Source of the DNA: Cystobasidiomycetes sp. EMM_F5 | Lineage: Eukaryota | Direction of reading: 5' to 3' | DNA: 64,000 nt | Assembly (NCBI GenBank): GCA_051047955.1 | Contig: JBPGPT010000008.1 | Location: 62,001 to 126,000, forward strand | Shown: positions 25,997 to 48,752 of the stretch, piece by piece | Layout: each line of letters starts with the position of its first letter | Position numbering within the stretch: position 1 is the first letter of the stretch | Program-made: the position numbers and the translations under genes | Notes under the pieces: generated by a model | Databases searched by the model: none | Told to the model about the DNA's origin: nothing | Seen by the model: only the letters and a program-made list of their open reading frames with translations

Positions 25997-28017
25997 CTAC
26001 GACCCTCCCTCGCCACGCGCACTTCGAAATCTAGATACTCGTTTTGGCTTGACTGCCTCTGACCCGTCTTTATCTGCCGAATGAACCTTTACCTCTGGTT
26101 GGATTTGTGGAGGTGGCATGGCCAGCACGGCCGATCTCTCCACCACGACGGGTGCGACAGATCTTACTGCCGGTTTGACCTCAGGAGGATGATCAGTGGG
26201 CGGTAAGGCTGCCTCCTGCACCTCATCCGGGCGAGGAGCAGGAATGACGCTGATATCGGCAAGATCATCGCCATTTTCCAATGCTCGCATATATCGCATA
26301 AACGTCTCAATCTCCTGCTGAGACATGCCCTTCAGGTCATGCGTGAGACCCTCGTTGCCCTCGTCTTGAGCCTCATCCCCGTCCTCGGCCGAAGCTTCCA
26401 CGTCGAATGGCCCAAGCTGGTCGCCAGGGAGAAGTTCGCTCTCAATATCAGACGGTCTCGGAGACAGCTGTGGAATAACCAATTGCGCGGTCTCAAGTCT
26501 ACCTGTCCTAAAGCGAGAGGGTCGGCGCCCGTCTCCCGTTCCACCCTCGTTGTCATCGTATTGTGCAATGGGTAATCCGCCCATGTCGGCTTGGGTCATT
26601 CCAGGCTTTATGACCCATAAAATAATCAGTCGGGAATCGTATATAGACAGACAACATCGCTCACCGTCTCGAAAGCATCATGATCACCATCCCCTCCGAG
26701 TGAGCCAGTGCCTCGCCCCGCACCCAGTTGGAAGCGACGTTGATGGTACTCGAGTGCTGCCTCGCGCATGGCAAGTAAATCGTCAATGTGGACATTATCA
26801 TCTTCGTCTTCGTCCGAGTCGTAGTTGTACAATTCGTCCGAGCCAGATGCGTCATCGTCATCATAGTACGCTTCGTCGTGGTCCACAGTGCCTTCCTCGT
26901 CGGCCGTCGGCTCAGAATTGCTCCATTGAGCGGATGATATCTCGCGCAATTGTCTCGGTAAGTACGCTGACAAGTCCACATGGCGTCCAGCGGGTTTGCC
27001 TTCGTTGGCATCGTGTGATCTCTCCGCAGCTGTGAGAGCTGGTGGTGGCCTAGTACTTTCCCTCTCGACCACTTTCGATTTGATTATTGTATCAGGCTGT
27101 GAGTTCTTGCTTGCAGTTGCGGGTTGTCGGGCAGTCTGGGCAGGTGCCTTTGAACGACGGTCATTTATTTGCTGTACTTGAGGAGAGCCAGGCTCGGGGA
27201 TCGCCTTGTCATCGATTTCCCCATCCTGGACGTTTGGTTCCGCAAAGCTGACTTGCTTGCGTTTGGGCGCTGTGTCGCTCGAAGCTGGTAGTGACGGACC
27301 TGGCTGTTGTTGCGAAACGGGTACTCGTATATTGCTGGAGGTCTGCCCAGACACTGGCAATGGATTTTTCACCTTGCTTTCACCTGCTATCGGCTCATCT
27401 TCTTCAAATTCCTCAATCTCCACAAAGGGCAAGCCTTCTTCATTGAGGAGCTGGAATGCGGAGGTCAGATACTATTCAACGAGGCCATGGCATGCCAGTA
27501 CGGCGCACCTCGTTGCGTTCGTTGACATGAGCGCCATCGATACCGACTTCGGCGCTGACTGCCGTTTGAGCCTTCTTGAGCGAGTCTTGCAATGCCTCTA
27601 GCTTTCCTATGACGGCTTGACTTGTATTGCAAGCTCAGTCGCTCAGCGGGGCGTCGTCTCTACAAACAACCAACCTTTTCGTCGTCTCTCGAGCACCTGG
27701 TGCGCTTGCTCGGCCGTGTACTCGACTCTGTAGCCATCGGGGGAGCTCTCCAAGAGCACAGTCACTTTATGCGTATCGACGACGCTGCCCGGAGCATACG
27801 CCAGTCTGGACGTGGATGCGACGGGAATCAGCGCACTCCACTGCTGTCCGCTGCTGAGTCGCTGCAAATCCCGCTGGACTCTGTCGATTCTGTCGAGCTG
27901 ATCTCTGAGCTCATGCTGGCCATGGCGTAGTGCTTGGACGGCCCGCAGAGTGTCGCTACTCGCTGGCACAGTCAGTGGTGTGAGCTTGCCCTTGCCCTTG
28001 GACCGAGTACTGGTCAT
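25997..28017 (-). CDS. BUD27: URI/Bud27-like unconventional prefoldin (prefoldin-like N-terminus, acidic middle, DUF3835-like C-terminus)
   Basis: ALIPVASTSRLAYAPGSVVDTHKVTVLL...YRVEYTAEQAHQVLERR, NEEGLPFVEIEE, MREAALEYHQRR, C-terminal KRVSRFRSAR. Confidence 0.75.
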
Positions 28018-28196
28018 CTCTTATAATGCATTTTCGTACAATGACAACCTAACCCAGATCATACATGCCATAGCCGTGTAAATTGTCAAGCTTTGTCGAC
28101 AAACAAGCAGCTTCTGCGAACAGCGTAGAATGACAAACTTTGTCGAATCACCCGCGAAAACCTCTCGTGTGCCGAATTCGACATTTGGAACTCCGT

Positions 28197-31100
28197 CTAT
28201 GCACAAAGTCTGCTCCAAAACCCCACCGGCGGCTTAGCTCTTTGGTAACGATGTCCGACCGGGTTGGCGACGCCCCCGTGTATTGTGCGAACCGTCACTG
28301 CACGAAGCATGCATGTCAGACAATCTACACGTTATTCCAGTTGTCGCACTCAACGTCACTAACCTCTTTCCGATCTCATTGCGCTCAGGGCACCGCACTG
28401 AGGAGGTCCTGATTCTATGCGCCAATTCATACGATCCCCTCCATTGGCCATTGGCTCTGTCAGAATAAACGGTTTGCGTCTGTGACGAAGGAACAAGCTC
28501 AGCAGGCTCGATAGACGCACATCGGCTTGTCTGGGCAGCTTGGACAGTACTAACCTGGCAGGAAGACCTCCACGAAGACGCAGAATGCGTCTGCCGTCGT
28601 CATCAGTGTAGAGAGGTAATTCAGTCTGCCTCAGATACCTTCGCCAATCTGGAAAGTTTAGCGCATCCGCATGGTTTCGTATATCGCGACCGAGATTATT
28701 GTCACGCGATGACCGTGATCTGAGCAGGTAGTTGACTAGCTCCTCCACCCGGTCGATGAAGACGATCAGAGTCTTGCACTCGTCGCGGCTCACAAAGGCT
28801 GGGTAGCCACGTTGAGCCCCGTCGCGGGTGACGACTTCGTACTGCATCAGATTCCTGACCCGGCTCATCAGATCGCTACCTTGACCCCAATTCCGCCGTA
28901 GCATGTCTCTCGCTACGAGCGTCCTACGCTCTTCATCCAGATGACCTAGAGCAAGGAATTCTGCAAATGGACGGTGAAACGGCTCGCTCGCCTCCAGGAC
29001 TGGATGTCGTTGCGGTCGAATCTCGAGTATCTTCTGGCGACGTTGTCGATACTCCCCTCTGTAATTGTTACCATTTCTGAGGCTTCTCGTTGGCATACTA
29101 CCGAAGAGACACGGTCACGGTAAGCAATCATGCAATCAGTTTATTGCAGCTTCGACTTACGGTACGTCTGTACTAGAAGACGATGATGAGCTGAATGACC
29201 AGCTGCTGAATGAACTAAATGACCAGCTGCTGGATGAACTGGAGCTTGAGCTGGCAGGGCGGCGAATGCTGTTGCGTACTGATGTTACATGAGGAGTTTG
29301 AAAAGTCTGCGCACGTTGCCGGCGATGGCGATTGTGGTCATGACCACCTCTAGGCCTTCTCGACGGACAATCAGTGAGATAACATCATCACAAATCAGGA
29401 CATACGGGAGGAAGGCGCTAGAAGACGAAGATGAGCTAGAGGATGGGCTATATCCGGAACTTGAGTCTGCAGGGTGCCGATGAGGTACCGATTGGCTACG
29501 ATATCTAGACGCGTTAGGCGTCCCGATAAACGTCGTTTGCGCCATGCCTTCGGCGTGTTGATTGCCATTATCGGCTGGACTGGTGACATTACCGATATCC
29601 CTCGTTTCTCTGTAGTCCCGCCCGAACTCGGATGTAAGAAAGTTGTCGACAGCTCGGGCTGGATCGACGGTGTTCATCGCTCTCCAGCGGCCGCCAGGCG
29701 CATTCAATGTATACCTCAGCAGGCGCGGATCTTCTCGACGACAGTAGCCACACTGTGCAGGAAGCGATGTGTTGCCTTGCACAGGAAGAACTTGTACTTG
29801 GCACTCTCTACGGCCGTAATCAGTAATGACGTGACATGCTACGTAAAAGGGGCCTACAAGTGGAACGCGTGTCCGCAGGAGAATACGTAACACTGTGCAG
29901 CATCGTTGTCCGACCACGATATTCCGCAGATTTCGCATTCGTCGCGACCGAAATAGCCTTGCCTTCCTACGAGACAAGACAAATCGCTGGCTCTTACCCA
30001 CGTTCCTGATGTGCCATGACGCGGGGTAACGATGGCCTGATATCTCCGCCACGCAGCTTCAGCTTCTGTGTCAACCGGCTGAGTGCCTGTCGACCTTCGC
30101 GCTGAACCTTGCGACAGGCCGGAGCCAGTCTCCGTAGGAGAAGGGAGATCTCCTGCAGCGGACATGGAGCTCCCACTGCTTTGCCTCGCAGCCGCCGTGT
30201 TTGCGTCGGCAACAGCTCTGGCCAACTCGGCGTCCATGACAATTCTTTGCATACGCTCGAATGTCCGAAGCGCAGCATCGTACGTCTGCTGCGTGACGTT
30301 GTCGATGCTGTAGAAGTGGGCGAGATGCATATTTGCTTCTGCCACCAACACTTCACCATGATCGAATGCCAGCGGCATCTGATTGACCATGAGTAGCAGA
30401 TTATCCCCTGCAGAGCAGAAGGAGGTTGAGTCAGAGCTTAAGTCAGAGCTTTCGGACTCTCCCAGCGGGAGTAGGTTTCGCTTACGAAGTCGTATGCTCA
30501 GAAGCCGCTGTCGACCAGGTGGCATTGCTGCAAAATCGTCAGACCGGCCGACACGCTGCGTCCCGTCCGTTTCGGCTGATGTATGACCCAAGTTCAACGA
30601 CGAGTAGTCCATGTTTTGAGAAGAATGTCAAAAGACGTACCGTTCTGCCGAGGACTAGCGTCTGCGGAATGCCTCGCTGATGACGATGCGTGAGAAGGTA
30701 CGGCAATTCCGATGGCTGAAACATTGGATTCAGAACCCTCTCTTTGCACTTCGATGGTGAAGTGTGCATACTACTGTCACCTTGCCGCGCACCTGCTGCA
30801 CTGCCACGGCGTTCGGAGGGGACGTTGCCGGGCAACATCGTTGCTGAACGTCGCTCAGGACTCTGGACACTATGACTGCGGTTCGACGTTGATGCTGGAC
30901 TGGCTGTTGGATGACGAGGGGGTCCTTCGCTCCGTGGCGGTACAGCTGCGGTCGTCATCAGAAATTCAGAAGCAAGCTTCAACACAATATAATGCGTACC
31001 TCGAGGTGACGCCATGCTCGGTGATACTGGTTCTAATGGACTGATGCGTCACTGTTTGCCCTTCTTTGATTGCCGGACATACGTACCCATGCCATCGCGC

Positions 31101-32410
31101 CTGTCCCCCGCTGCCGACACGTACATCAGCTCAAGTACGCGGTAAAATCTGCGTAACGCATAGTGACTCACCCGAAGAGTGGCGCGTGATACCAGAGCTG
31201 GCGACAGCATTGGCGACTCCGGGCGGGGGAGCGTTCTCAATGATCCTCTCGTAACACACCAAGGTAGGCCGGACTACAGCGCGGGTGTAGCCCAATCGGC
31301 GCCGAGCGGTGTCAGCGTACTCCAAGACTTCCTGTTGACTGACGCGGCGCCTGTTCTCGTCTTGATACTCCAGATACCACTGGCCATCGGTGTGACGACG
31401 AAAGCAGCTGTAGGTTCCGTGGTCTTGGTGGCCGCCCCGCCTTCTTCCATGATGGCATATTATGCCGTAAAGCCGATACCTCGTATTTTGACCCTGTACC
31501 GGCCACTGCGCGCGACCGCAGAGTCAAATACGATCAAACATTGGACGTGTGCACTTACTGCCATATACTCTCCAATGTCAATCTCCTGGTCAATAGTGAA
31601 TTGAGATCCTCTCGGAGGAGGCTGTAGACTAAACATGAGTACGTCTTGCGCTGTCTGAATGTATTGTCGATTTTGTCGAGACCGATTACAGCTACGGAAA
31701 GGGAGGTCAGTCGCATCGAGGGAGCACAGTGCAACCTCATACCTTCCACACCTCTGCTCGAGCAACGCGCCGTGATTCCAGCCACGCAAGCAAGCACGAA
31801 TGCTTTGATCTTGGTCGATAGGATTCAGTATAGGCAACGGATCAAGTGGGCTCCGTCTCCACGAGGAGTGTTGATCGTGTATCGGTAGCCCATGTTCATC
31901 CAAACACTCTAGACGAGTTATTGGCTGCCATCCAATCGCGCTTGTCCAGAGCATCGTGGAATGCAAGTCTGTTCGAGCATCAGCACGCAGGAGAATTACC
32001 CTCATTGCGTCCGCAGCGTCGTGCTCTTGTCCAGGCGAGAAGCGATCTGGTTGCATACGCAATTAGCAGGGTTCCGCGACCATACACATGGCTACCGAAA
32101 TACCCCGAATGACGCGGGTTGCAATCTCCTCTCGCAAGGTGATGAAGTCGAAGCCGCCATTATCCACGCCAACTGTTCCTAGCGCGTAGCTACTGAAGAG
32201 GCAAGCGAGACAATTTTGCTCATCTAAAGCCATATGATGGTGTCAGTACTGCCAGCCCGCCTCGGAAGCATGTTCGAGTTATTGCTTACCTCGACACGGT
32301 CTGTGGGAGGCAGTCCCTGCTTGAATACCGTCCAGTAGCGTATCGCTGAAAAGAATCATTCTTAGCACCGCAGACAAGTAGCATGTATTTGGTACCAGCC
32401 GATTGGACAT
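28197..32410 (-). CDS. Array copy 1: pseudo-USP + intact RING-H2 + Ser-rich linker + LRLRGG-containing domain
   Basis: ATG 32410 MSNRLVPNTCYLSAVL. Hand-spliced GT-AG introns keep frame through CEIC..CGHAFHL|ECQ..CGYC and ILRLRGGLPAR to ...KPPVGFWSRLCA* at 28197. Confidence 0.8.
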
Positions 32411-32945
32411 GTCTGAGGAGTGCGCTGGGACGCGAGAGCAAGGTGAATTAGCCTGGGGAATCCTCAGAATGGGATTCGTTGGCGCTAATCACTGTGCGAT
32501 GGAAAGAGGGGAAAGAGACGGACATTACGAGACTTGGAGCGTGCACTGCTGGAGCACCCAAACGCAGACGGTGGTCTGAGACGCTGTGCTAGAAGGGCTG
32601 TGGAGACTACCTTAGTGTGTAGTGCGATGAGATGACTGTCGCCTCCCCTTGTCAGCGTGTGATGCGGTGGACGTCAGTTGCAAGGGCCGTCGTCAATGGT
32701 TAGCTGCGGATGTCAAATTCACCGTGCTGCACTCAGACATGGCTGCGCTGCACTGCTGCATCTATATACGGCAGTCCGTAGTACGTAGCAAGCAGCCTGA
32801 GGCAGCTGGTGGCAAGAAGCAAGGACTACTCCAGCTGGGGTCCAAACACCGTACAAACACTTGACGGAGATCCATTACAATCTCAAAGTCTACTTCTAGA
32901 TTCTAAGCACATTATCTTATCCCGTACGCTCAATAACCTCTCCGC

Positions 32946-35900
32946 CTAGTAGTACCCTCTCAACTCGGAGCGCGAAGCTGTGACCAGCTCGTACGCGTGT
33001 CGCACGGGATGGACAACGCCATTGTGCACAGTCTGCGCATACACTGAACACCGTGTCTACTCCTTAGCCTTGGCATGACTTGCGAAGTGAGACTAGGACA
33101 AACTGACCTCGTTGCTGAAAACTGGATCTGCCAGAGGTGCTGTTTCGAGTCGCTGGCGTGATCCGCCAATTGTCGCGATCTCCTAAATTGGCCAGTGGCT
33201 GCGTCATAACGAACGGCCTGCGCCTACAGAGGGAGAAAAGGCTCGTTAAGCCTTGATAAAGACACATCGGCTTGCCTTAGCAGATTGCATGACCCTCACC
33301 TGGCGGGAAGTCCACCACGAAGGCGCAAAATGTGTCTGTCGTCATCATCAGCATAGAGGGGCAGCTCAATCTGCCTGAGATATCTTCGCCAATCTGGAAA
33401 GTCTAGCGCGGCCGCATGATCACGAATTTCGTAAGCAGAAGGGCGCGACGACCGTGATCTGAGCAGGTAGTTGACTAGCTCCTGCACCCGGTCGATGAAG
33501 AAGATCAAAGTCTTGCACTCGTCGCGGCTCACAAAGGCTGGATAACCACGTCGAGCACCATCGCGTGTATGGACTTCGTACTCCATAAGATCCCGAACGC
33601 GGCTCATAAGATCGTTACCTTGACCCCAGTTCCGACGCAGCATGTCTCTCGCTGCGAGCGTCCTCCGCTCCGTCCCACGCCTTCCGTTTAGATGACCTAG
33701 AGCTAGGAACTCTGCAAATGGGCGGTGAAATGGCTCGCTCGTTTCCAGGACTGGATGTCGCCGCTGTCGTGCCTGGAATATCGGCTGACTTCAATGTCGT
33801 TGATCTCGACTGTCATTTCTGCGCCTTCTTGTTGGCGTACTGCCAAAGGACACGGTCAAGGTAAACAATCAGCTTATTGCAGCTTCGACTTACGGTCGGT
33901 CAGGGCCAAAAGACGTTGACGAGCTGGATCCGGAGCTTGAGCTAGCGGGGCGGCGACTGCCATTGCGCACTGATGTTGCAGGAAAATCTTGAAGTGTCCG
34001 TCGATGTTGCCGCTTATCTCGACTGCGGTTGACACTATCCCTGGGCCTTCTCATCGTTGGACTTTCAGAGTGACATGATCAGCGCTCAGTGCTGTCGCCA
34101 CATACGGAAGGACATACGGATGCGACGTGTCAGAAGACAAAGATGAGCTAGAGGATGTGCTCTGTTCAGTACTAGAGCTTCCAGGACGCCGACTGCCGGG
34201 TGTTACTGGAGTTGTTGTGTGAGACTGTATCGTCTGGAGACGAGAACGGTAATCTGGACTGCTATGATGACCTCCTCCAGGCCTTGTCGTAGATGGACTG
34301 ACAATAAGTCGTGGTCAGTAAGTGCGCGCAGCTCATTGTGGTCTCGACTTACGGCAGGTTGGGGCTATAAGACGATGCTGAGCTGGATGTTGAGCTGGAC
34401 TCGGAGCTTGAGCTTGCTGAGCGCCTGCTGCCGTTGCCTACTGAAGTGGCAAGAGGAGGTTGAAGTGTCTGCGGGCGTTGCCGAGAATCTCGACTGTCAT
34501 CATCACCATCTCTGCGCCTTCTCGTTGGCGATCTGCCGAAGCGATACGGTCACGTTAAGCAACCAGCTCCGTAGCTTCGACTTACGGAAGTATGTCTAAA
34601 GACAATGATGAGTTGGACGACGAGCTGCTGGACGAGCTGGATCCTGAGCGTGGGTTGGCAGGACGCCGACTGCTGTTGTTTACCAGACTGGCTGGAGATG
34701 CACGCGATCGGATCCCATTGCCTTCAGCATCCCGCTGTGGAGGTCGCTGAGGGACGTCCGGAAATGGCGCAGCTGTCCTGTCGCGATGACCTGCCGGAGG
34801 AACGTCGGCGCCTATACTCGGCGGTCTGCTGGGAGCGGGCCTGAGCTGACCTTCAGGCCTGTTGACCATTGACGGTGGAAGTCTGGCTGTTCCATCCTCA
34901 GAAGGACGCGGATCAGCGCGACTTGAGGTAATAGCATGCTGGCATGCAGTGCGCTCTCTATAGCTCCTCCCATACTCGCTCGAGAGAAAGTCGTCGATTG
35001 TGTGCCTGCCGATTGCGAGGGCACTGGCGTACGGTGTGCGCCAATGTAGGTAGTTTGCAAGAAGATCATCTTGCTGGCGACAATGTATGCATCGGGAGGG
35101 AGACATATGGTTATTAGACCCGGAAATACTAACCTGACCTGACCTGCAAGTTTGGTCAGAAGGCAGCGTGGCAGGACTCACAATTAAGCTTACAGATGCG
35201 TTACGTGTCCACAGCTGAAGACGTAACAGTCTCGTGCTGTATGCTGTGACCACGCTTCCAAGCATATGCCGCATGCGGCATTGACACCGTCCCGGTTGTC
35301 AAGGAGAGCTAGCTCATCTGATGTCATACACAAACCTCCGGAGCGGTCGCCATTGCGAAGAGCCTGATACCTTTGCCACGCAGCTTCAGCTCGAGGATGG
35401 CTTGATGGTGTTGATCCAGATTGCTGCCTATTGGAAGTAGTGTGACCAGTAGAGCGCCGAGACCTGGACGCGGAGCCCGCATTTGATGCATTTGGTACTG
35501 CAGCCTGTTGTGTAGGGGCAAGCGCCTCCGCTCTTCTCTGTGCGGCCGCCATAACGGCACGTTGAATCCGCTGCGATGCTTGGTACGCAGCTTCGTAAAC
35601 TTCGTTTGCACTGTCCAATACACGATGGGCAGTGAGGTCGGAGAATCGTGTGTTGATATGGTCGCGGTGCAGGCCTGCTTCAGCGCGCAGAGCTTGGCTA
35701 TTCTCAATCTCAAGCGGCACGTTATTCGCTAGTCGATCAAGCTCATCGCCTAATGGAAAGGTAGCTTAGGTCACGATCCTGCCTTTCGAGCAGAAGATGC
35801 TTTACTTACGAAGACCTTCAATCCGCAGCCGCCGTCGGTACATTGGCTCTGGTGAACCATTGTCGTGAGAAGAGCTACGATTCTGGACATTGTCATACCG

Positions 35901-37699
35901 GTCCAAAACCGGCTCTCGGGCACTTGTTGGGCGACTAGAGCGATCTTCGCGAGCAAACTGAAGGTCCCAGTACTGAATGTATTCGTTTGCCCGGTTCAGG
36001 ACCACTCGAGTCACGTCCGCATTCCTCATGCGCCGAAGATGAAAGCGGGCTTCCGAGGGGCCGTGTCTCGTGTCTTCGGTTGGGGGAAAGCGCTGCAAGA
36101 TTTCTTGTAATCTCACGTCTGTTTAGATGGCACGACCAGCGCTCAGACACATAGACAAACCGACAGGTCTCCACCTACCGCAATTCGCGATCTCTTCTGG
36201 TGTTGGCACTGGATTGGATGTCAGAGAGGGTGGTCAGGTGAATATTCAGTTCCCGATGTATTGCGCACCTGGCATCATTCTGGGTGACAGAGGACCTGTC
36301 ACACAGTAGCGCGTCAGCCTTGCCCTCATACCACGCCAGAGAAACTCACGCTGGTGCTCGCGATCCTCGCTTACTGCGCTCGCATGACTTAGCGCCACAA
36401 GTGGGTTTAGATGACAATACTTACCAGGGAGGCGATGGCCAGACAGGGAGTTGCCGGCTACAATTGCAGCTTCGGGGTGCCGAGCCTCTGCTTCCCCATT
36501 GATTCTCTCGTAACACACCAAGGTAGGCCGGACTACAGCGTGAGTATAACCCAATCGGCGCCGAGCGGTGCGAGCGTAATCTAAGACTTCCTGTCGGTTA
36601 ACAGAGCGCCTGGGTTCGTCTTGATACTCCAGATACCACTGGCCGTCAGTATCACGATGAAAACAGCTATAGGTGCCATGATCTTGGTTGCCTTCCTCCC
36701 TTGTTCCGTGATGGCATATTATGCCGTAAAGCCTATACGTTGTACTTTGACCCTGTACCGGCCACTACGCGCGATCGCAAAGTCAAACACGTGGTCACGC
36801 TTTGAAGGTGCGCACTTACTGCCATATACTCCCCAATGTCAATCTCCTCACCAATGCTGAATCCCAAGCCCTCCGGAGGAGGCTGCAAATTGAACATCAG
36901 TACGTCTTGCGCTGTTTGAATACATTGTCGATTTCGTCGACGCCGACCACATCTACGGGAAAGAAGTTCAATCACATTCAACGAGCAGAGGGCAGTTGCG
37001 TACGTGAGACATGGGCGATCGAGTACCCCGCCGTCGCTCCAATGACGCAAAGCATCACGAATGCTTCCATTCCCGTCGACAGGATGAAGTATGGGTAACG
37101 GATCACTTGGATCCGGTCGCCAAGGGGAGTGTTGATCGTGTATTGGTAGCCCATGTTCATCCAGACACTCCAGACGACCCGTAGATTGCCAGCCGATAGC
37201 GCTTGTCCAGAGCATTGTGGGATGCTGTCCCGTTCGAGCTCGCGCTCGCGAGATCACAATCCTCATTGCGTCCGCAGCATCGTGCTCTTGTCCAGGCTGT
37301 AAGCGATCTAGTGGCATACACAATCAATCAGCAGGGTCCCACGACCATACACACGTACACTGAGTTACTCTGAATGACGCGGGTCGCAATCTGCTCTCGC
37401 AGGGCGATGAAATCAAAATTTCCGCTGGCTATACCTGCTAATTCCAGAGCATAGCGAGCGAAGAGGCAAGCGAGACATCTTTCTCTATCTACAAACACAT
37501 GCGAGGTTAGCCCGGCGAATTCCGCTCGAAGGCATTTTTGGATAGATTGCTTACTGCTGCAAGTAATGTGAGCTCTAGTCCCGTCTGCAATGCTATCCAG
37601 CAGTGTCTCGCTAAAGAGAATCATTCTCAGCACCGCAGACAGATAGCATGTGTTGGGCACCAGTGATGCTTCTTGCGAAGAGGACGCGGACGTGGACAT
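32946..37699 (-). CDS. Array copy 2: same architecture, three extra Ser-rich exons, in-frame TGA at 33791-33793 before the C-terminal domain (possibly truncated)
   Basis: ATG 37699. USP boxes, degenerate RING (CGIC..CGHVTHLSG..CIHC), HILRLRGGLPAR, final exon ends ...SELRGYY* at 32946. Confidence 0.72.
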
Positions 37700-38286
37700 G
37701 GCGGAGGGGAGCGTTGCGACGTAAATATGTGATTCTCGTGGGCTGCTTGGAGGATGGTGGGGAATGAGTATTTGGCGTTGTTACTTACAATGCGAAAGGA
37801 GAGAGACCGTCGTCGCCTTTTTGTAGATTAATGCCATCCTGCAGGTAAGCTTCAATGACACGCTGTGCTGACAGAGGCTGTGGGTGGGGTGTTTCCGTTC
37901 AATAGCGGGACAATGGCCAGCGAGATGTGAAGGGGAAGGATGTAGAGGGAAAGGGCAGTGTCAGTGTCAGTGTTAGTCATAGCCTGACCGCTCATTGTCA
38001 GTCAGTCATCAGCTACCGCGTTGCTTCTGCCGAATAGACCAGGCTGTCGGAAGTTGCAACCAGCTCATAGCGGCATATGTCCTGGCCCGTTATTAATCGA
38101 ACGTCGTGGGTTGCCAGTTAAACAATTCCCGTATGAGCGGCAACTTCAAGTTGTATGAGCTGAGAGCATTTCGGGCGAAGTCGACAACGAGCAGCTTTCG
38201 CCCGAAGATGCTCCGCATCGATCAGCTGAGTATCAAACAGCACTCAATGTCCGTACATCTGTCTGGAAATGCCATATAATGCTCAT

Positions 38287-41200
38287 CTACGCAAATCGAC
38301 TACTGAATCTACCCCAGAATCCTCTCGAGCCTGAAGCGCTGGCCAGCTCGTACCCGTGACGGACGGGATTCGCAACGCCATCGTGCACTGTCTGTATGTG
38401 TACTGAAGACCAACACTGCTTGTCAGCGCGGCCCTGATTTGGGGAGAGTGACAACCTACCCCTCCGCTGGGCACTGGATCTGACAGAATTGCCGTTTCGG
38501 CTCGCTGGCGTAATCTGCCAGTTGATACGATTCCCTCCGTTAACCATTGGCTGTGTCAGAATAAACGGCTTGCGTCTATGGTCGCCGTCAGTCAGCATAG
38601 CCAACTCACATCGTCCATCACTGGCATCCACCGCTCACCTAGCAGGCAATCCTCCCCGTAACCTCAGAATACGACTACCAAAGTCGTCGCTGTAGAGCGG
38701 TAATTCTGTGCGTCTCAGATAGTCACGCCAGGCAGGAAAGCCTAGCGCAGCAGCTCGTGCTTGTATGTCATCACCACTTTCCCGGTGCCGTGATGAACGC
38801 GAGTCGAGCAGAAACTCTGCTAGTTCTTCCACTCGGTCGATGAAGATGAGGAGCGCCTTGCACTCGTCGCGGCTGACGAATGCCGGAAGGCCTCGTTGAG
38901 CACCTTCACGGGACACGACTTCGTACTGCATCAAGTTTCTCACGCGACTCATCAGGTCATCGCCGCGGCTCCAATCCCGCTGCAACATTTGCACCGCAGC
39001 AGAACAGCCGCGTGATGAGTCGAGTCGACCAAGCGCCAAAAACTCTGCAAATGGTTTATGAAAAGGATTCCCCGTTTCCAAGATCGGATGCCGACGTGGT
39101 CGCGCTCCAGGTGTTCTCTGAGTAGAATGCCTGTAGCTTTCATTGTTGGCGTCAACGTTGCCGCGTCTTCTCGCTGACCGTCTGCTGGTGAAGTCACACA
39201 ATCAAAATCATCGCCCAGCGCATTGTAAACCCCGACTCACGGTAGGTTTGTGCTAGAAGACGATGACGAGCTGAATGACGATCTGCTGGATGAGCTGAAA
39301 GATGAGCTGCTGGATGAACTAGACCCGGAGCTTGAACTGGGAGGATGCCGACTGCCATTGCGGGCTGATGTTCTTGGAAACTGTTGTGTTGATATCCTAC
39401 TTTCCTGCATTCGAACGCGTCTTCGGTCTGGAACAGCCGGAAGGCTCGTGTACGCCTCCGCATCCCGCCTGAGCGGCGTACTGAGTGGAACTTGCTGAGA
39501 AAAGTTTGGAAATGGCGCAGCCGTCCTGTCGCGAGCCGGCGGTCTGCTGGGAGTAGGCCTATCGACCGTCGACGGTTGAAGTCCGGCTGTTCCCCCTTCG
39601 GAAGGACGCCGATCAGCGCGAGCTGAGGAAAAATCATGCTGGCATACATCGCGCAGTCTATAGCTGCTGCCGAACTCGTTCGTAAGAAAGTCGTTGACAG
39701 GATCCCGCCCGCGAACGTTAGCGTTGAGGTCACGCCAACGTAGATAGCTTGCAAGACGATCATCTTGCTGGCGACAATGAATGCATCGGGAGGGAGACAT
39801 GTGGTTATCAGCCCGAGAAATACCTATCTGGACTGATCTGCAAGATTGGTCAGAAGATAGCGTGGAGGGACTCCTGGTTTCGCTTACAGGGGCGTCACAT
39901 GTCCGCATCTAAACACGTAACAGTCCGGTGCTGTATGCTCAGACCACCGGTTCAAGCATATACCGCATACGACATTGAGACCGTCCCGGTCACCAAGGAG
40001 GGCTAGCTCTTGGGAGGTCATGCACAGACCCCCGGAAGCATCGCCATTGCGTAGCGCTTGATATCTCCGCCAAGCGGCTTCGACACGAGAATCGCTTGAT
40101 GATGTCGCTGCAGGTCTCCTTCCTCCAGCTTGCTGCCTGTTGACAGTATTGTGTCCAGCAGAGGGACGAGATCTGGACGTGGGATATGTGTCTCCGCTGC
40201 CGAACCTTCGAAGCGATGTCGGTGCCACTGCGCCTATCTCTGCCGGATTCTGAGGACTCATGGTACTACCTGCACGTGATACGATTGGTACTGGGGCACG
40301 CGCAGCCACTCTGCGCGTTGCGGCCAACATGGTCTCACGTTGGATCCGCTGTGATGCCTGATAAGCCGCTTCGTAAACAAGATTTGCACTGTCGGATACA
40401 GGATACGCAGCGAGATCCTCAAATCGTGCGTTGATGTGCTCGCGGTGCAGGCGTGCTTCGGCGCGCAGAGCTTGGCTATTCTCGACATCGGGCGGTACAT
40501 TATTCGTTAATCGATCAAGCTCGTCGCCTGACGGAAAGGAAGCTTGAGTAACGATTCTCAATCAAGAGAAATGCGATGTGCTTACGAAGAGCCTCAATCC
40601 GTATTCGATGTCGGTGAGCCCCGAATAGACTTTCCAGTGAGTTCCTGTGCGAAATACTTCGCTCCCTGTCTGCTGAGACTGCAAATTTAGCGACAAAACT
40701 TACAGGTTATCGAGGAGAATGAGGCTGAACACACCAATCTGCGAAGTACCACTATCCGCGGAGCGCCGTCCCGGAGGATACATCCGCGCAAGTAAGTCAA
40801 CCGGTTCGATTCGACGGCTTGCTGAGTGCAATACCAGCATCAGCACTTTCATCCTCATCAGGCTATATGCTGAGGCTAACCGTTTCCTGCAATGTTCGGT
40901 ATGCGCTCGTAACATACCAAAGTTGGTCGGACGGTGTGGCCGACCTGACCATGGGCAAACGCTGCAAAATCTGCCACCTCGGGACACGGAAGCGGTGCGC
41001 GATCTTGATACTCAAAGAGCCATTGACCATCTCCTTGACGACGAAAGCAGGAATAAGTTCCGGTACTTTGGTCTCCGTTTGCGTATCTTCCTCCGTGGTG
41101 GCACACAATGCCATTGAGGCGATACCTGGTGCTTTGACCCACCGGAGGTCCCTGCGAGAGACCATTCAGGTATGCCAAGGAGAATAAAGCCAAAGCTGAC

Positions 41201-42049
41201 CGTACCAGAAAGCATTCGTTCAAGTCAAGGTCGGCATTGCACTCAAAATGTTCACCGTCGGGCGGAGGCTGCAGGCGGAACATCACCACATCTTGGGCTA
41301 CAGTCAGCCAATTACGAGATTGACGACGTCTCCCGCATGGGTGGCCTTGATCACATGGTGAATCTAGCCTTTGTGGTGTTCTCCAACGAATGAGACAGTC
41401 ATGCACACTGCCTGTTTCGGCTGTGTTCAGTATCGAAGTGTGCTGACTTGTTGGCGAGGCGATGCTGATGTGCGGAATGAACATGGGATCGTTGCTTGAG
41501 TGTAAGCATTCGATCTGAGTGAAGCTTATCCATCCAATCGACGCGGTCCAATTCATATCTGCATGTCTTCGAGCAGCTTGCATAGCTGCCGTTTGCAACA
41601 ATGTCGCCAACGCTTCGGCAGAATCGTGTTCCTGACCGGGTCTAAACTGATCTGGACAGACAAGGTAGTCAGACTTGGGATTCCGGAAGGCTGCAGCACC
41701 AAACCAACCTCGAATGACGTTCTGGGCTATACTCTCTCGCAATTCGATGAATGTTAATCCTTGCCCTCCAAATACATGAAGCGCGTAGCTTGCTAATACA
41801 CATGCTAGACAGCTGTCTAGCGGATGTCAAAGATCTGAAGTCAGCGATTTCAACTATTCACAGTTTCGGATGAGCCTCACCTTGATCGGAACATGGTCTC
41901 TGTCGCTCAGCTCCATCAGCGATGCGATTCATGATTACAGTAGAGTGTACGATCATCCTGAGAGCAGCCGAGAGATAGCATGTATTTGGTGTAGGTCCTG
42001 CATCCCGTCTCCTGTGCCGAGATGTACGCGGGCGAGCATTCTCGGACAT
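38287..42049 (-). CDS. Array copy 3: pseudo-USP + degenerate RING + LRLRGG-containing domain
   Basis: ATG 42049. In-frame junctions read NIAGN|ASRRIE, SQI|VSADR, IEAL|RDELDRL, HVTPL|SVQ, STNLP|RRSARR. Ends ...GFWGRFSSRFA* at 38287. Confidence 0.82.
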
Positions 42050-42945
42050 CCCGACTAGCAGATTGGCTTTTCTTGTATGTTGTTAGTGGGGCAGATCATC
42101 GTCAGCCGGGCCAGCTGTTGACGCTGGGCGTCCAATCGTATATTGACGCCCATCGCCTACGCTGTGCTAAAGCTATACACGGGCCCTGCCTTATTTGAAG
42201 GGAGTTGGGGCTGCACCCGGGGCGTCATATCTAGACGGAGATGATCATGATCTCTTTTGTTGGGTCTCTCGTGTCGTGGGCGGTTCTGTCGATTATACTC
42301 TGCTTCGACTGTCAACCAGCTGTCAGGCATCATTCGCCTACAAGCCATTTGATCAGTCCAGCCCAAATCATCAATGAACCTTGAGTGAAGTCAGGACGTC
42401 AGTGAATGTCAGTCTTGCCCCGCTTTGCGATAGTCTGGTCGTGTCGGTTATTGCTGAGACAATGCCTGAATGATACCGCTGCATGCCAGAGGCGGTACAC
42501 AGCTTGCATCGATTCCGCATGGGCTGCCTGTAAGTGCGTACATGCTCTGTGACCGTATGCTGCTGCTACAGTCTCGTTGCTGAAAGGGCGATTCGAGGGA
42601 AATGTCACTCCGTTGAGCTCATTGTAAGGTGCATGGCATTGTTGCTGGGCTTGCATCTCGCACTTTGGCACAGGCAGTCAAGGATGTCGAAAGCAGTATC
42701 GCATCTGGGTGTGCTCATAGATCCAACTCCGGCTGACCACGGGCAGGTAGGTGAGAGCGTCCACCAGCAACCAGCAAATCACGCTTCACAATGACACTCT
42801 ACAGAGAGAACGGAAAACCAGGGGACTGAAATCCTCAGTCTTAACTAACGTCTAGTCGACAGTACAGTACAGTAACTATTTCTCATAAAAGACAGGCGGA
42901 CTGGCTAGCCATGCGTTCGCTGCGGGGAAGTGCTCGAGCTCTTCC

Positions 42946-45900
42946 GCTACAAGTGACCAAACCATCCCTCGAAGAGCTGACTCGGGGCCTTGGCTCGCTT
43001 GTACTTGTGAAGAACCGGGTTCCGAACGCCTTCGTGAATAGTGCTTATGTTGACTGAGGAGCATGTCAGCTCACGCTGGATGGTCATGCCATGCGACGAA
43101 AGAAACAGACTGACCTTGTCGCGGACCGCGCGACCCAGAGTCAGAGCACGAACGACTCACAGCCTCGATCCGCCAATTGGTGCGGTCCCCATTGTTGGCC
43201 AAGGGCTGCGTCAGTATGAATGGCTTGCGTCTGCGGGCAACATCTGTCAGTACGAAATCCCTCCATCATAACATAGCGCATACCGGCCTGGAACGCCGCC
43301 ACGCAGTCTAAGCATGCGATTGCCATACTCATCGGTGTACAGAGGCAGTTCTGTACGTTTCAAGTATGTTCGCCAAGCGTCGAAATTTAGATCAATGGCG
43401 CGTTGCCGCATGTCCAGACCGCAGTCGCGGTCGCGTTGCGTCCTAGAATTGAGCAGGTAATTTGCCAAATCACCCACCCGGTCGATGAATATGATGAGCG
43501 CCTTGCACTCGTCGCGACACATTAACGAAGGCAATCCTCTTTGAGCACCCTCGCGCGTCACCACCTCGTATCGCAGCAGCTCTCTGACACGACTCATAAG
43601 ATCGCCACGCCAATCCCAATTGCGCTGCAGCATACGCGTTGCAGCAGAACATCTGCGAGATGAATTGAGCGTACCAAGAGCCAGAAATTCGGCGAACGGC
43701 TTCTCAAACGGCTCTTGCGAGTCAAGTACCGGGTGCCGACGCGGTCGCCCTACAGGAACAGTCGGAGCGGTTCGCCTGCCATTGCCAGTAGTAGCGATGT
43801 CGTCCATAGGCCTCCTCGTCGCTCGACTGCCAAAGAGATGCTGTCAGCAACAAGATAGTAAAAAACACTGCTCCCCGACATACGGGGCTGGTGCGCCATA
43901 GGACCTTGATGAGCTGGATGACGAGCTCGAGCCGGAGCTTGGGCTTGAGCTTGGTGTACGCCGACGACTGTCGCGCACTGGACTTGCTAGAGCCGGTTGT
44001 AACGATGCAATGCGATCTCGCGATCGAACAGGTCTTCGATAGCGTTCGTCTGGGAGGTCATGATGTGCTTCAGCATCCCGCGTCAGCGGCGTGCTGCGTA
44101 AAGCCTCATGCGGGGCTCTCGAAGATCGCCTGGAGTTTCTACCGCGAAGATGTGACGGCTGTATGTCGCTGCCCACAACCAACGATTCGGTAAAAGCAGG
44201 CCTTCGGTATCCTTCGGCCATGTCTCCACTTTGCCCGATCAGATCGTCTAATCTTCTGTTCAAGTCACCCCAACTGGCATTCCTCGACGAATGAAGTCCA
44301 GCTATCCCCTGCTCTGAAGCGCGACGACTGGGGCCAGCTAAAACCCTATTGTGCTGACATGCATTCCGATCCCTATACTGACTTCCAAACTGGCTGGTAA
44401 GAAAGTCGTCAAGTGCGTTTCGCTCGCTGTGAGAAGTAGTCCAATTACGCTGTGTGCGCCAACGAATATAGTCTGCGAGACGATTATCTCGTGCACGGCA
44501 GTGTATGCATAGAGACGGTGACATGTGATTTTGGTCAGCGGAGATTCCGATCTGGCCTGATCTGCGAAGACGATGGGCGGCCGCGTCAAGTGGCAGCACT
44601 GCTTCTTTGCAGGATAAACTCACAAGTGAGTTACATGTCCGCAGCTAAAGACGTAACAGTCCGGTGCTGTATGCTCAGACCACCGGTCCAAGCAGATCCC
44701 GCAATGGTCATTCAGACCGTCCCGCTCACCAAGGAGGGCTACCTCTTCTGATGTCATGCACAACTCCCCGGAAGTATCGCCATTGCGTAGTGCTTGATAC
44801 CTTTGCCAAGCAGCTTCAGTTCGAGGGTCATTCGATGGTGTGGGTTCAGATTGCTGCCTGCTGAAAATAGTGCGACCAGCAGAGGGTCGAGATGTGCGAG
44901 CGGGCCTCGTGTTTCCTCTGCCGTGCCGGCGACGCGATGGTGGGTTCGCTGCGCCAGTTTCTGCCGGATCCGGAGCTCTAATAGCGTTCCCTGCATTTAA
45001 TGCATTTGATACTGTAGCTTGCTGTGTACGAGCCTCTGTAGCCGTTCTGTCTCGCGCTGGGGCGTGAACGACATGTTGCAGTCGTTGCAGTGCTCGCGCC
45101 GCATCGTTGTAAGCTTCACGTGTGACCATGTTCGGACCTTCCCATTGTGCGATGAAGGGATTGGCTCCGTCGAGCAAGGCGCGGGTTTCAGCGCTGGGTG
45201 GGTTGCGACGCATGCGAGCGATCTCATCTTGCAAATTCGAGACTTTGAGGACGCCGTCCTGGTATTAGATCTTTGGACTTTATGCATGAGTAATGCGATC
45301 GACATTACTTACTCAGCTGAAATGCTTCGATGAAGTCTGGCGGCCGTGACGATATGTTCATCTGATTGCTGCTGACTGAGATTGCCATGTCAAGATTTGT
45401 GTCATTCCACCAAACAATACCAACTGCGTACACGACGATGGACGATCTTGCGTAGGTTGAGTATCAGCACCTGCTATGCGCTCGTAAGATACCAAAGTTG
45501 GTCGGACGGTGGACCGTATCTGTCCACGAGCAAACGCTGCAAAATCAGCCTCCTCAGGACACGGAACCGGCGGGTAGTCTTGATATTCAAAGAGCCATTG
45601 ATCATCCTCGCGGCGACGAAAGCAGGAATAAGTTCCCGTATCTTGGTCCCCGTGTGTGTATCGTTCTCCGTGATGGCACACAATGCCAGTGAGGCGATAC
45701 GAGGTGCTTTGACCTTCCGGCGGTATCTGCGAAAAAGCGTTCAAATATGCCAAGACGAGCTATGACAATGGTGACCACACCTGAAAGCATTCGCTCAATT
45801 CAATCACGGGATCGCACTCGAAGTGTCGACCAGCGGGCGGAGGCTGCAGGCGGAACATTACCACATCTTGAGCTGCACTCAGCCAATTACGGGATTGGCG

Positions 45901-46600
45901 AGGTCTACCGCATCGGTTGCCTTGATCACATCGGGAGTCTATCCTCTGTGCTACTCTCCAACGAAGGAGGCAGTCACGAACACTGCCCGTTCCGGCTGTG
46001 TTCAGTATCGGTGTTGGCTGACTGAGGGGCGAGCCGTAACGGGTATGCGACAGCCAATCAACATTGCCGCTTTCGTCCACGCATTCGATATTGGTGAAGG
46101 TTCTCCATCCGATCGACGCGGTCCAATCCATGTTTGCATGCGTTCGTACAGCTTGCGCAGCTGCAATTTGCAACAATGTGGCCAACGCTTCGGCAGAATC
46201 GTGTTCCTGACCTGGTCTGAATTGACCTAGACAGACAAGGTAGTCAGACTTGAGAATTGGGAAGACTGTAGCACCGGACCAACGTTGAATGACATTCCGG
46301 GCTATACGTTCTCTCAATTCGATGAATGTCAATCCTGGCACTCCAGATACGTGAAGCGCGTAGCCTGCTAATGCACATGCTAGACAACTGTCTAGCGGAT
46401 GTCAAAGATCTGAAGTCAGCGATTTCAACTATTCACAGCCTCGGATGAGCCTTACTTTGAGCGGAACACGGTTGGTGTTGCGCAGCTCCTGCGGCGATGC
46501 GATCCATGATTACCGTAGAGTGTACGATCATCCTTAGAGCAGCCGAGAGATAGCATGTATTTGGTGTAAGTCCTTCACCTCGCCTGGTGCGCCGAGACAT
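42946..46600 (-). CDS. Array copy 4: pseudo-USP + degenerate RING + LRLRGG-containing domain
   Basis: ATG 46600 MSRRTRRGEGLTPNTCYLSAAL, RMLRLRGGVPGR, ends ...QLFEGWFGHL* at 42946. One linker junction near 45250-45310 needs an AAG acceptor and is less certain. Confidence 0.75.
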
Positions 46601-47222: not shown

Positions 47223-48752
47223 ATGAGTGACGCGCAACCACCAAATGATGCACCAGCTGGGTCTGGAAATAACGACAAGGACAAGGACAGCCAGTCTGCG
47301 TCCACGTCTGCCTTGGCTGGAACCTCGACATCTGCGGCTGGAACCAGCGCTGGACCCAGCGATGCCGCCATGGAACCCGTCGAGGACGAGCTCCCAGAGG
47401 ATATCCGGAATGCGAGTGCCGACGACTTGCTGACGAGGGCGAGGATGCTCGATAACGAGATTCGAGTGAGCGCAGTTTTTACTTCTCTCTATCGTTGTGC
47501 GGATGTGCTGATTACGCAAGACGTCCAGATGATGCGCAACGAAAAGATCAGACTGATGCACGAGGAGAACAACATGAAGGAAAAGATAAAGGACAATACG
47601 CAAAAGATAAAGGACAACAAGCAGTTGCCGTACCTTGTCGCCAAAGTCGTAGAGATTCTGGATGTCGACGAGGAGGCGACAGAGCCCGAGGAGGGAGCAA
47701 ACATCGACCTCGACAGTACGCGCAAGGGCAAGTGCGCTGTAGTAAAGACGACCACACGGCAGACTGTCTTCCTTCCGCTCATCGGCTTGGTCGATCCCGC
47801 CAAACTCCGGCCGAACGATCTCGTGGGTGTACAGAAGGACTCGTATCTCGTCCTCGATACCCTGCCCGCCGAGTACGACTCTCGTGTCAAGGCAATGGAG
47901 GTGGACGAACGACCTACAGAGACGTACCAAGATATCGGTGGGCTCGACAAACAGATCGAGGAGCTGGTCGAAGCGATTGTGTACCCTATGAAGTATCCAG
48001 AACGATTCAAGGCGCTCAACATCAAGCCTCCCAAGGGTGCCCTGATGTATGGACCGCCCGGGACAGGCAAAACGTTGCTAGCGAGAGCGTGTGCTGCTCA
48101 AACGAGCGCATGCTACTTGAAGCTAGCTGGACCATCGCTCGTACAGATGTTCATCGGAGATGGCGCAAAGCTCGTTCGCGATGCGTTCGAATTGGCAAAG
48201 GAAAAATCGCCCGCCATCATCTTTATCGACGAAATCGACGCCATCGGCACAAAGCGTTTTGACAGCGACAAGAGCGGAGATAGAGAAGTACAGCGGACAA
48301 TGCTGGAGCTGCTCAATCAACTAGATGGGTTTGGCTCAGACGATCGCATCAAAGTCATTGCAGCTACGAATCGTATCGATATTCTCGACCCGGCTTTACT
48401 GAGATCAGGCAGGTTGGACAGAAAGATTGAGTTTCCACTGCCGACCGAAGATGCGAGAGCGCGAATCATGGAGATACATTCGCGTAAAATGCACGTCTCA
48501 CCACGAGTTAACTTTGAGGAATTAGCGAGGAGTACAGACGAGTTCAACGGCGCACAATTGAAGGCTGTTTGCGTTGAAGCGGGAATGATTGCTCTTCGAG
48601 AAGGCGCATCGATCATAGGTCACGAGCACTTCCTCAGGTGAGCCTCGCGTTGCATGTCCTTCTGCACGGTATCCCTATTGACATGTTCCTCCTTTAGTGG
48701 CGTCCTGGAAGTGCAGTCCCGCAAGAAGAACGATCATTTCTACTATGCGTAA
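47223..48752 (+). CDS. RPT5: 26S proteasome AAA-ATPase subunit Rpt5 (6A)
   Basis: [59 protein letters not shown]. Last exon ends ...KKNDHFYYA*. Confidence 0.98.

Follow-up and report, generated by a model that had tools for sequence, protein, structure and literature searches.

The DNA analyzed here, called the window in what follows, is a stretch of 64,000 nucleotides (nt) from the basidiomycete yeast Cystobasidiomycetes sp. EMM_F5 (GenBank assembly GCA_051047955.1, contig JBPGPT010000008.1, positions 62,001 to 126,000 of the forward strand), and all coordinates are counted from its first letter. Between positions 28197 and 46600, on the minus strand, it carries four collinear, head-to-tail paralogous units, c1 to c4, all of whose features are likewise on the minus strand. 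Units c1 (28197..32410), c3 (38287..42049) and c4 (42947..46600) were each modeled by hand curation as a single coding sequence without internal stops, with 11, 9, and 8 introns and products of 1130, 1081, and 1061 amino acids (aa), respectively, while the curated coding sequence of c2 (32946..37699) has 15 introns and 1296 codons, including one in-frame TGA. An earlier reading of the letters by a model (hereafter the sequence-only reading) had described a tandem family of four copies, and this description is borne out by direct-repeat families, which occur in four copies each at a spacing of 4.6-5.3 kb in a repeat scan, and by tblastn, in which the provisional products of two units matched each of the four units, with the order preserved, and had no match in the rest of the window. 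The boundaries then proposed hold for c1 to c3; the end given for c4, 42946, was 1 nt off, the stop codon lying at 42949-42947. The units are separated by spacers of 535, 587, and 897 nt, and a comparison of the spacers upstream of c1 to c4 for promoter motifs gave no common motif at E <= 0.01. Most likely, the parts follow one another in the order USP-like domain, linker and helical stretch, RING-H2 finger, Ser/Arg/Pro spacer, an orphan domain containing LRLRGG, and a basic tail. As judged from its sequence, the product is a multi-domain protein of the ubiquitin system; neither its combination of parts nor its orphan domain was matched by anything in the data searched.

Read from stop to stop, each unit falls into at least three apparent open reading frames (ORFs), namely pieces with USP motifs, a piece with half a finger, a Ser-rich piece and a piece with LRLRGG. 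For the gene models, the junctions were read by eye, the intron coordinates were fixed by hand, and both were then checked by scripts; frame support from tblastx was noisy, since similar copies align with one another in more than one frame. In all, 43 GT-AG introns were curated, of 44-141 nt, with a median of 58 nt. Their donors are GTAAG (15), GTGAG (7), GTATG (4), GTACG, GTAGG, and GTTAG (3 each), GTCAG and GTGTG (2 each) and four singletons, so that GTAAG or GTGAG is found in 22 of the 43, and retention would cause a frameshift or a stop for 37 of them. It had been claimed that the stops ending the ORFs at the domain junctions lie inside introns with canonical donors and that short introns join the parts in frame in every copy, with an internal TGA in the second as the sole exception. 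The first claim holds, the stops lying within the donors themselves; in c3, for example, an ORF-ending TAG lies within the donor GGTTAG (40878-40876) and an ORF-ending TGA within CCGTGAGT, at about 39240; the second agrees with the open frames predicted for c1, c3, and c4, and the TGA of c2 was indeed the only exception.

Six intron positions are common to all four units, each in the same phase throughout: after the exon with the Cys box (phase 1), just ahead of the exon with the His box (phase 0), within the RING finger (phase 2), between spacer and orphan domain (phase 2), four codons past LRLRGG (phase 2), and in the tail (phase 1). A splice-chaining program returned products of 1092-1309 aa on the real strand in every unit, compared with 210-525 aa on the opposite strand of the four units and 118-451 aa in six of six shuffled sequences. 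Four introns of a public ab initio model, P0003, are identical to curated introns of c1. The conserved linker of c3 lies in an ORF without an ATG of its own, and in c2 and c3 the orphan domain must be spliced to the spacer exon, because the conserved start of the domain precedes the first ATG of its own ORF. The RING finger, the spacer and the LRLRGG domain almost certainly belong to one continuous predicted gene, and each unit as a whole is probably a single multi-exon gene. Together with the proposed architecture, a single gene per unit is the best model that the in silico evidence offers, as the sequence-only reading had held. Elsewhere in the window, the last intron of a gene for an RPT5-like AAA ATPase (48640-48697, plus strand) is 58 nt long and has a GTGAGC donor that contains the ORF-ending TGA; after its removal the product ends in YYA. 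This intron provides a local standard for genuine introns and is of the same kind as those of the array.

The USP-like domain occupies 31242..32410 in c1, 36501..37699 in c2, 40900..42049 in c3, and 45475..46600 in c4. Its Cys box, PNTCYLSA, is identical in the four units (32392-32369, 37657-37634, 41989-41966, and 46564-46541, from c1 to c4), and so are PGQEHD, CHHG, GTYSCF, and EYQD (in c1 at 32035-32018, 31457-31446, 31418-31401, and 31370-31359; GTYSCF at 36677-36660 in c2, 41061-41044 in c3, and 45636-45619 in c4). The region of the third catalytic residue, QW..EYQD, is likewise present in every unit, and its D in c1 aligns with the DD of USP30. The assignment to the USP family made in the sequence-only reading agrees with a comparison to the Pfam model PF00443 (UCH), run like all Pfam scans of this part on unspliced ORFs, for the His-box ORF of c1 (29.9 bits against a cut-off of 23.9), but not for the 316-aa ORF of c3, which with 20.0 bits stays below that cut-off. 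It agrees further with a profile of the four units run against the PDB, for which USP36 was the best match (E 0.0011), followed by USP30, Ubp8, and Ubp6, and with a language-model search of the Atlas, where the ten best family-bearing matches of the USP ORF all belong to UCH families (top score 0.95). An AlphaFold model of the c3 USP ORF had a predicted local distance difference test score (pLDDT) of 38, too low for use of its fold. By its motifs and profile matches, the domain probably has a very divergent USP fold, like that of peptidase C19. As a lead on origin only, the nearest language-model clusters of the USP ORF at 40879-41826 (minus strand) are compact USPs of 215-259 aa recorded from Nucleocytoviricota.

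Between the USP-like domain and the finger lies a fast-evolving, variable linker, followed by a conserved helical stretch. The eight-ligand RING-H2 consensus (C-x2-C ... C-x-H-x2-H-x2-C ... C-x2-C, searched as a regular expression) is complete in one unit of the four, c1, where the finger (29741..29937) shows the full C3H2C3 ligands at aa 655-703; the phase-2 intron 29857-29808 runs through it, and splicing it out restores perfect C3H2C3 spacing. The RING-like fingers of c2 (35080..35273, intron 35193-35144) and c4 (44498..44703, intron 44623-44562) have no ligand 6, HL-EC being replaced by HL-SG in c2, and that of c3 (39774..39967, intron 39887-39838) has neither ligand 5 nor ligand 6 (HVTPL-SV). 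Among Pfam RING models the best score was 16.5 bits against a cut-off of 27.3 (zf_RING_Vps8), for a scan of the N-terminal half-finger from which the intron splits the rest. The role of ubiquitin writer that had been ascribed to the RING finger appears doubtful in c2 to c4, where ligands are missing. Unit c1, alone in having all RING-H2 ligands, is also alone in having a GGH in the loop of the His box.

The spacer that follows comprises 204-371 residues, of which 59-67% are Ser, Arg, Pro, Thr, Gly, or Ala. It is longest in c2 (33770..35079), with 371 aa and four repeated exon units (repeat families D4, D10, D14, and D16), compared with 204-234 aa in the other units. These repeats are evidently the product of exon duplication within a disordered spacer. 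At 33840-34585 they appear as four tandem Ser-rich units of exon plus intron, each of about 235-470 nt; one or two such units are present in the other copies.

The orphan domain lies at 28566..29018 in c1, 33311..33769 in c2, 38650..39102 in c3, and 43295..43747 in c4, and each copy ends on LRLRGG (28583-28566, 33328-33311, 38667-38650, and 43312-43295). In the six frames of the window this hexamer occurs four times, once per unit, with 0.035 occurrences expected per shuffled window. The four copies of the domain align with a mean column identity of 71% and many unchanged blocks, LRLRGG among them. Pfam scans gave no ubiquitin-family match for it, nor any Pfam match at all. Its structure was predicted, at low confidence (pLDDT 57.8), as eight helices with one short hairpin ahead of LRLRGG; Foldseek found no match to this model in the PDB at E <= 0.001, and the best Atlas look-up (0.84) led to unnamed bacterial clusters and is below the level of a lead. 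As far as the model shows, the domain does not adopt the beta-grasp fold of ubiquitin. LRLRGG is internal in all units, with 74-80 residues behind it. These form a conserved, basic tail (c1, 28197..28565, 75 aa after GG and two introns; c2, 32946..33310, 74 aa; c3, 38287..38649, 80 aa; c4, 42947..43294, 77 aa), which has no match in the Pfam scans and carries two motifs conserved in the units, RKPFILT.P..N.G.R.NW.I and H.GV..PV.H.Y., as written for c1. Regarding the ubiquitin-tail domain of the sequence-only reading, the motif itself stands, being exact in all four units, but a ubiquitin-like domain around it is not supported, given the low-confidence helical model, the lack of a Pfam ubiquitin match and the internal position.

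The ratio of nonsynonymous to synonymous substitution rates (dN/dS), estimated by the Nei-Gojobori method on in-frame ORF segments, ranges from 0.12 to 0.58 in seven segments wherever dS is not saturated. It is below 1 in all segments and lowest in the LRLRGG domain (0.13-0.19), indicating purifying selection on every part of the units. A conflict or immunity role, which the sequence-only reading had brought up, is not supported. The units differ by 35-60% at the protein level, yet three of the four retain an intact frame of over 1000 codons. The relationships among units differ from part to part: over the USP part the closest pairs are c1 with c2 and c3 with c4 (66-83% identity); for the linker and finger, c3 is the unit nearest to c2 (73%) and c1 stands apart (about 37%); and for the orphan domain c1 and c2 are paired again (82%). 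Unit c2 is in this sense a mosaic of c1-like and c3-like parts, and such mosaicism suggests that gene conversion or unequal crossing-over takes place within the array. With the four Ser-rich repeat exons of c2, it indicates that units continue to recombine and exons to be duplicated.

The sequence-only reading had proposed a lineage-specific family of undescribed architecture, and both proposals agree with the searches made. The profile of the orphan domain, run against 1.84 billion representatives, gave three real matches, all of them ORFs or models of the window itself, and the three matches of the USP profile among 5.8 billion proteins were likewise the window's own. A fourth match of the orphan-domain profile, P0004, was rejected as a spurious repeat artefact; this protein has 960 aa made up of about a dozen near-identical 80-residue repeats, and 29 profile positions matched it 12 times (E 5.6e-14). 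A word-based and hence weak search for longer fused relatives returned none for either the LRLRGG domain or the USP ORF, and a metagenome scan with the alignment of the LRLRGG domain gave 241 pattern matches, none of which was confirmed. No description of a USP-RING-LRLRGG architecture was found in the titles and abstracts covered by a literature search. According to the genome note, the EMM_F5 assembly comprises 18.6 Mb, its annotation is ab initio, without RNA, and the 27 genomes of the class include no sister taxon (PMC12697161). The lack of relatives is in part a sampling gap, because that sister taxon is missing. Public annotation of the locus includes P0003, an NCBI hypothetical protein of Cystobasidiomycetes sp. 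EMM_F5, which proves to be a chimera: it joins 33311-33790, the c2 orphan domain through LRLRGG, over the 535-nt spacer to the USP part of c1 at 31049-32345, and omits parts of the USP exons. Since this model fuses two units, the public annotation of the locus is unreliable.

Housekeeping genes flank the array, as the sequence-only reading had also stated, and the prefoldin-like and the RPT5-like gene lie in its neighborhood. The prefoldin-domain ORF (27646-28020, minus strand; PF02996, E 1.2e-7) has its ATG 179 nt downstream of the stop of c1, on the same strand, so that same-strand intergenic gaps can be very short in the host genome. An origin of the array from a transposon or a virus was considered and rejected, with no Pfam domains of such elements, host-like introns and housekeeping genes around it.

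The six residues of LRLRGG are the C-terminal residues of ubiquitin, which are held in the clefts of USPs. In the window the motif occurs four times where 0.035 is expected, and it always has a USP-like fold upstream. The most economical reading is that in the array, too, LRLRGG would be bound in such a cleft. Taken as a whole, the explanation preferred here is one fusion gene per unit, with LRLRGG as a mimic of the ubiquitin tail for the cleft of the unit's own USP-like domain; it is held tentatively, at a little short of an even chance. The mechanistic part, in which LRLRGG would be a built-in copy of the ubiquitin tail that occupies the substrate cleft of its own or a paralogue's USP-like domain, is inferred and, taken separately, more doubtful. 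In c1, with its GGH and full RING finger, such an arrangement might allow self-cleavage after Gly-Gly, as in USP1. In c2 to c4, the motif would more likely act as an uncleaved pseudo-substrate, latching the protein or linking paralogues head to tail, and the latch could gate whatever the RING region does.

Several observations weigh against this explanation, at the level of the gene model as well as of function. The splice joins of the models are predicted from the DNA sequence, and the junction between the USP-like domain and the linker is their weak link. In c3 (40528..40899) it would consist of three phase-1 introns (40880-40822, 40734-40679, and 40585-40528) with two small exons between them; the equivalents lie at 31241-30508 in c1, 36500-35750 in c2, and 45474-45243 in c4. 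The region aligns poorly across units. In c1, four chaining programs found differing in-frame paths, so that the path is not unique, and a 24-nt micro-exon is required; c4, where splice signals at this junction are weak, requires a GTGCT donor and an AAAG acceptor, and an out-of-frame CAG acceptor, at 45259 as against 45243 in the model, lies nearer to the branch-like CTAAT; c2 requires a weak GTGCG donor. Moreover, an in-frame ATG follows the unspliced USP stop after 17 nt in c3, 33 nt in c1, and 216 nt in c2, and overlaps it in c4. The overlap in c4, at 45358-45361, takes the form ATGA, an arrangement that is usual for coupled genes of prokaryotes but strange for a fungus. Each unit could accordingly be read as two genes, a stand-alone USP-like gene and, after a very short gap, a second gene that encodes everything from the linker to the tail, with in-frame joins that are due to chance or to alternative splicing. 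The nearby ATGs, the poor conservation and multiple paths of the junction, the end of the c1 USP part of P0003 at a stop in the junction region and the 179-nt gap to the prefoldin-like gene are all in keeping with such a division. However, gaps of -2 to 33 nt are too small for a terminator and a promoter, and the spacers between units are by contrast 535 nt or longer. Joining in frame is possible in all four units, each of which leaves the USP exon by a phase-1 donor shortly past a conserved YERI, and in c2 it proceeds through a series of five phase-1 introns, of which three have a GTAAG or GTGAG donor. In addition, the USP and RING parts have remained neighbors, in collinear order, throughout duplications old enough for dS to be saturated. 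On balance, two genes per unit are unlikely, and the single fusion gene is retained.

The remaining points concern what the protein could do. In the profile alignment to USP36, the G-T-Y of the array falls under G-H-Y, so that every unit has Thr in place of the canonical catalytic His. A GGH lies five residues before this Thr in c1, and single-sequence alignment pairs it with the catalytic His of USP30 and USP9X; the same column holds N in c2 and D in c3 and c4, and the His-box loop of c3 has no His at all. Self-cleavage is disfavored in most units because of this replacement and of the loop of c3, and most or all of the USP-like domains are probably not proteases. Of the two roles that had been considered for the domain, removing or binding ubiquitin, that of a reader appears the likelier and that of an eraser less so. 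RING ligands are lost in three of the four units, and c2 has its TGA at codon 1062 (33795..33797, minus strand), 10 codons before the orphan domain begins its conserved part. The TGA and the losses of the canonical His and of RING ligands would suit a decaying array, in which the units are relics of a once-active gene for a deubiquitinase fused to a ubiquitin ligase that now drift as pseudogenes or as ORFs without function, LRLRGG no longer playing any role; with relatives absent from the databases searched, conservation elsewhere is not visible either. Such decay is nevertheless very unlikely: in spite of the divergence between units the long frames have stayed intact in three of four, dN/dS stays at 0.12-0.58 across the segments, with 0.13-0.19 for the orphan domain, and splice signals have been kept at the six common positions. 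A more serious possibility, though still rather unlikely, is that the fusion genes are real and LRLRGG is an ordinary conserved strand of an unrelated helical domain, the RING and USP-like parts acting on ordinary substrates. The motif is internal, the domain is modeled as helical rather than beta-grasp, and LRLRGG is no more conserved than the blocks PFAEFLALG, DLMSRVR, RDECK, FIDRV, and ELPLY of the same domain; by a rough estimate, about one to two chance occurrences of LRLRGG would be expected in a proteome of ~6,600 proteins. On the other side, the motif reproduces exactly the six residues bound in USP clefts, shares its chain with a USP-fold domain and does not vary among the four units; no more than four codons behind it comes a conserved exon boundary, and then a conserved tail. 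At the opposite extreme, it can be imagined that the array forms a self-processing ubiquitin-like module, in which the USP-like domain, at least that of c1, would cut its own or its paralogues' LRLRGG, yielding either a Gly-Gly end on a RING protein of ~1000 residues (a giant modifier) or a free tail effector of 74-80 residues, and that the tandem layout, recombination and exon shuffling of the array mirror a conflict system of this yeast lineage (killer and immunity, or anti-viral); this is a long shot.

Should the preferred explanation, a fusion gene whose LRLRGG mimics the ubiquitin tail, prove true, its interest would lie in regulation. Enzymes of the ubiquitin system are usually modular and act on separate substrates. 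A chain that unites a USP fold and a RING finger with the six tail residues of ubiquitin would amount to a natural experiment in regulation in cis, and might illustrate pseudo-substrate latching, or a cellular form of the self-processing seen in USP1 and in viral USP-fold proteases. The array is also an example of four old paralogues whose three parts have kept their order while units recombined into mosaics and exons were duplicated, and it comes from a yeast family, the Microsporomycetaceae, of which there is no second genome. In practical terms, it is certain that the public ab initio annotation of the locus is wrong, at least one model being chimeric across two units, and the family escapes domain searches made on unspliced ORFs.

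Different aspects of the units can be found individually in known systems. USP39/Sad1 and PAN2 are inactive USP-fold proteins in which the fold is kept for binding and the Cys, or both Cys and His, are lost. The array resembles them in having a USP fold with a catalytic residue lost, but it keeps the N-T-C-Y Cys box and has lost only the His position. A20 (TNFAIP3) combines an OTU domain and A20-type zinc fingers in one chain and so shares with the array the association of a deubiquitinase-type domain with a zinc-finger module of ligase type, an association to which the sequence-only reading had also pointed; unlike the array, it has an OTU rather than a USP domain, A20-type fingers rather than a RING, and no ubiquitin-tail motif. 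In the ubiquitin fusions Ub-L40 and Ub-S27a, LRLRGG is followed by a short basic extension that is freed by cleavage after Gly-Gly. The array shows the same succession of LRLRGG and a short basic extension, while the fusions have a true beta-grasp domain and a ribosomal extension in place of a domain modeled as helical and a tail without Pfam match. The coronavirus papain-like protease, a USP-fold enzyme with thumb, palm, and fingers, cuts LXGG sites in its own polyprotein and binds ubiquitin or ISG15; the likeness here is a ubiquitin-like L-x-G-G tail that is read in cis, and the difference is that the protease is viral, catalytically complete and without a RING. USP1 is reported to cleave its own chain behind an internal Gly-Gly, which leaves a long fragment from the N-terminus and a short one from the C-terminus (PMC4326527, PMC8975806). 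Its triad is complete, it has neither a RING nor an orphan domain, and the cleavage site is part of an insert in the catalytic domain, whereas the units of the array have Thr at the canonical His and their Gly-Gly about 700 residues downstream of the USP-like domain. What USP1 has in common with the array is a USP-fold protein with a ubiquitin-tail-like Gly-Gly site in its own chain.

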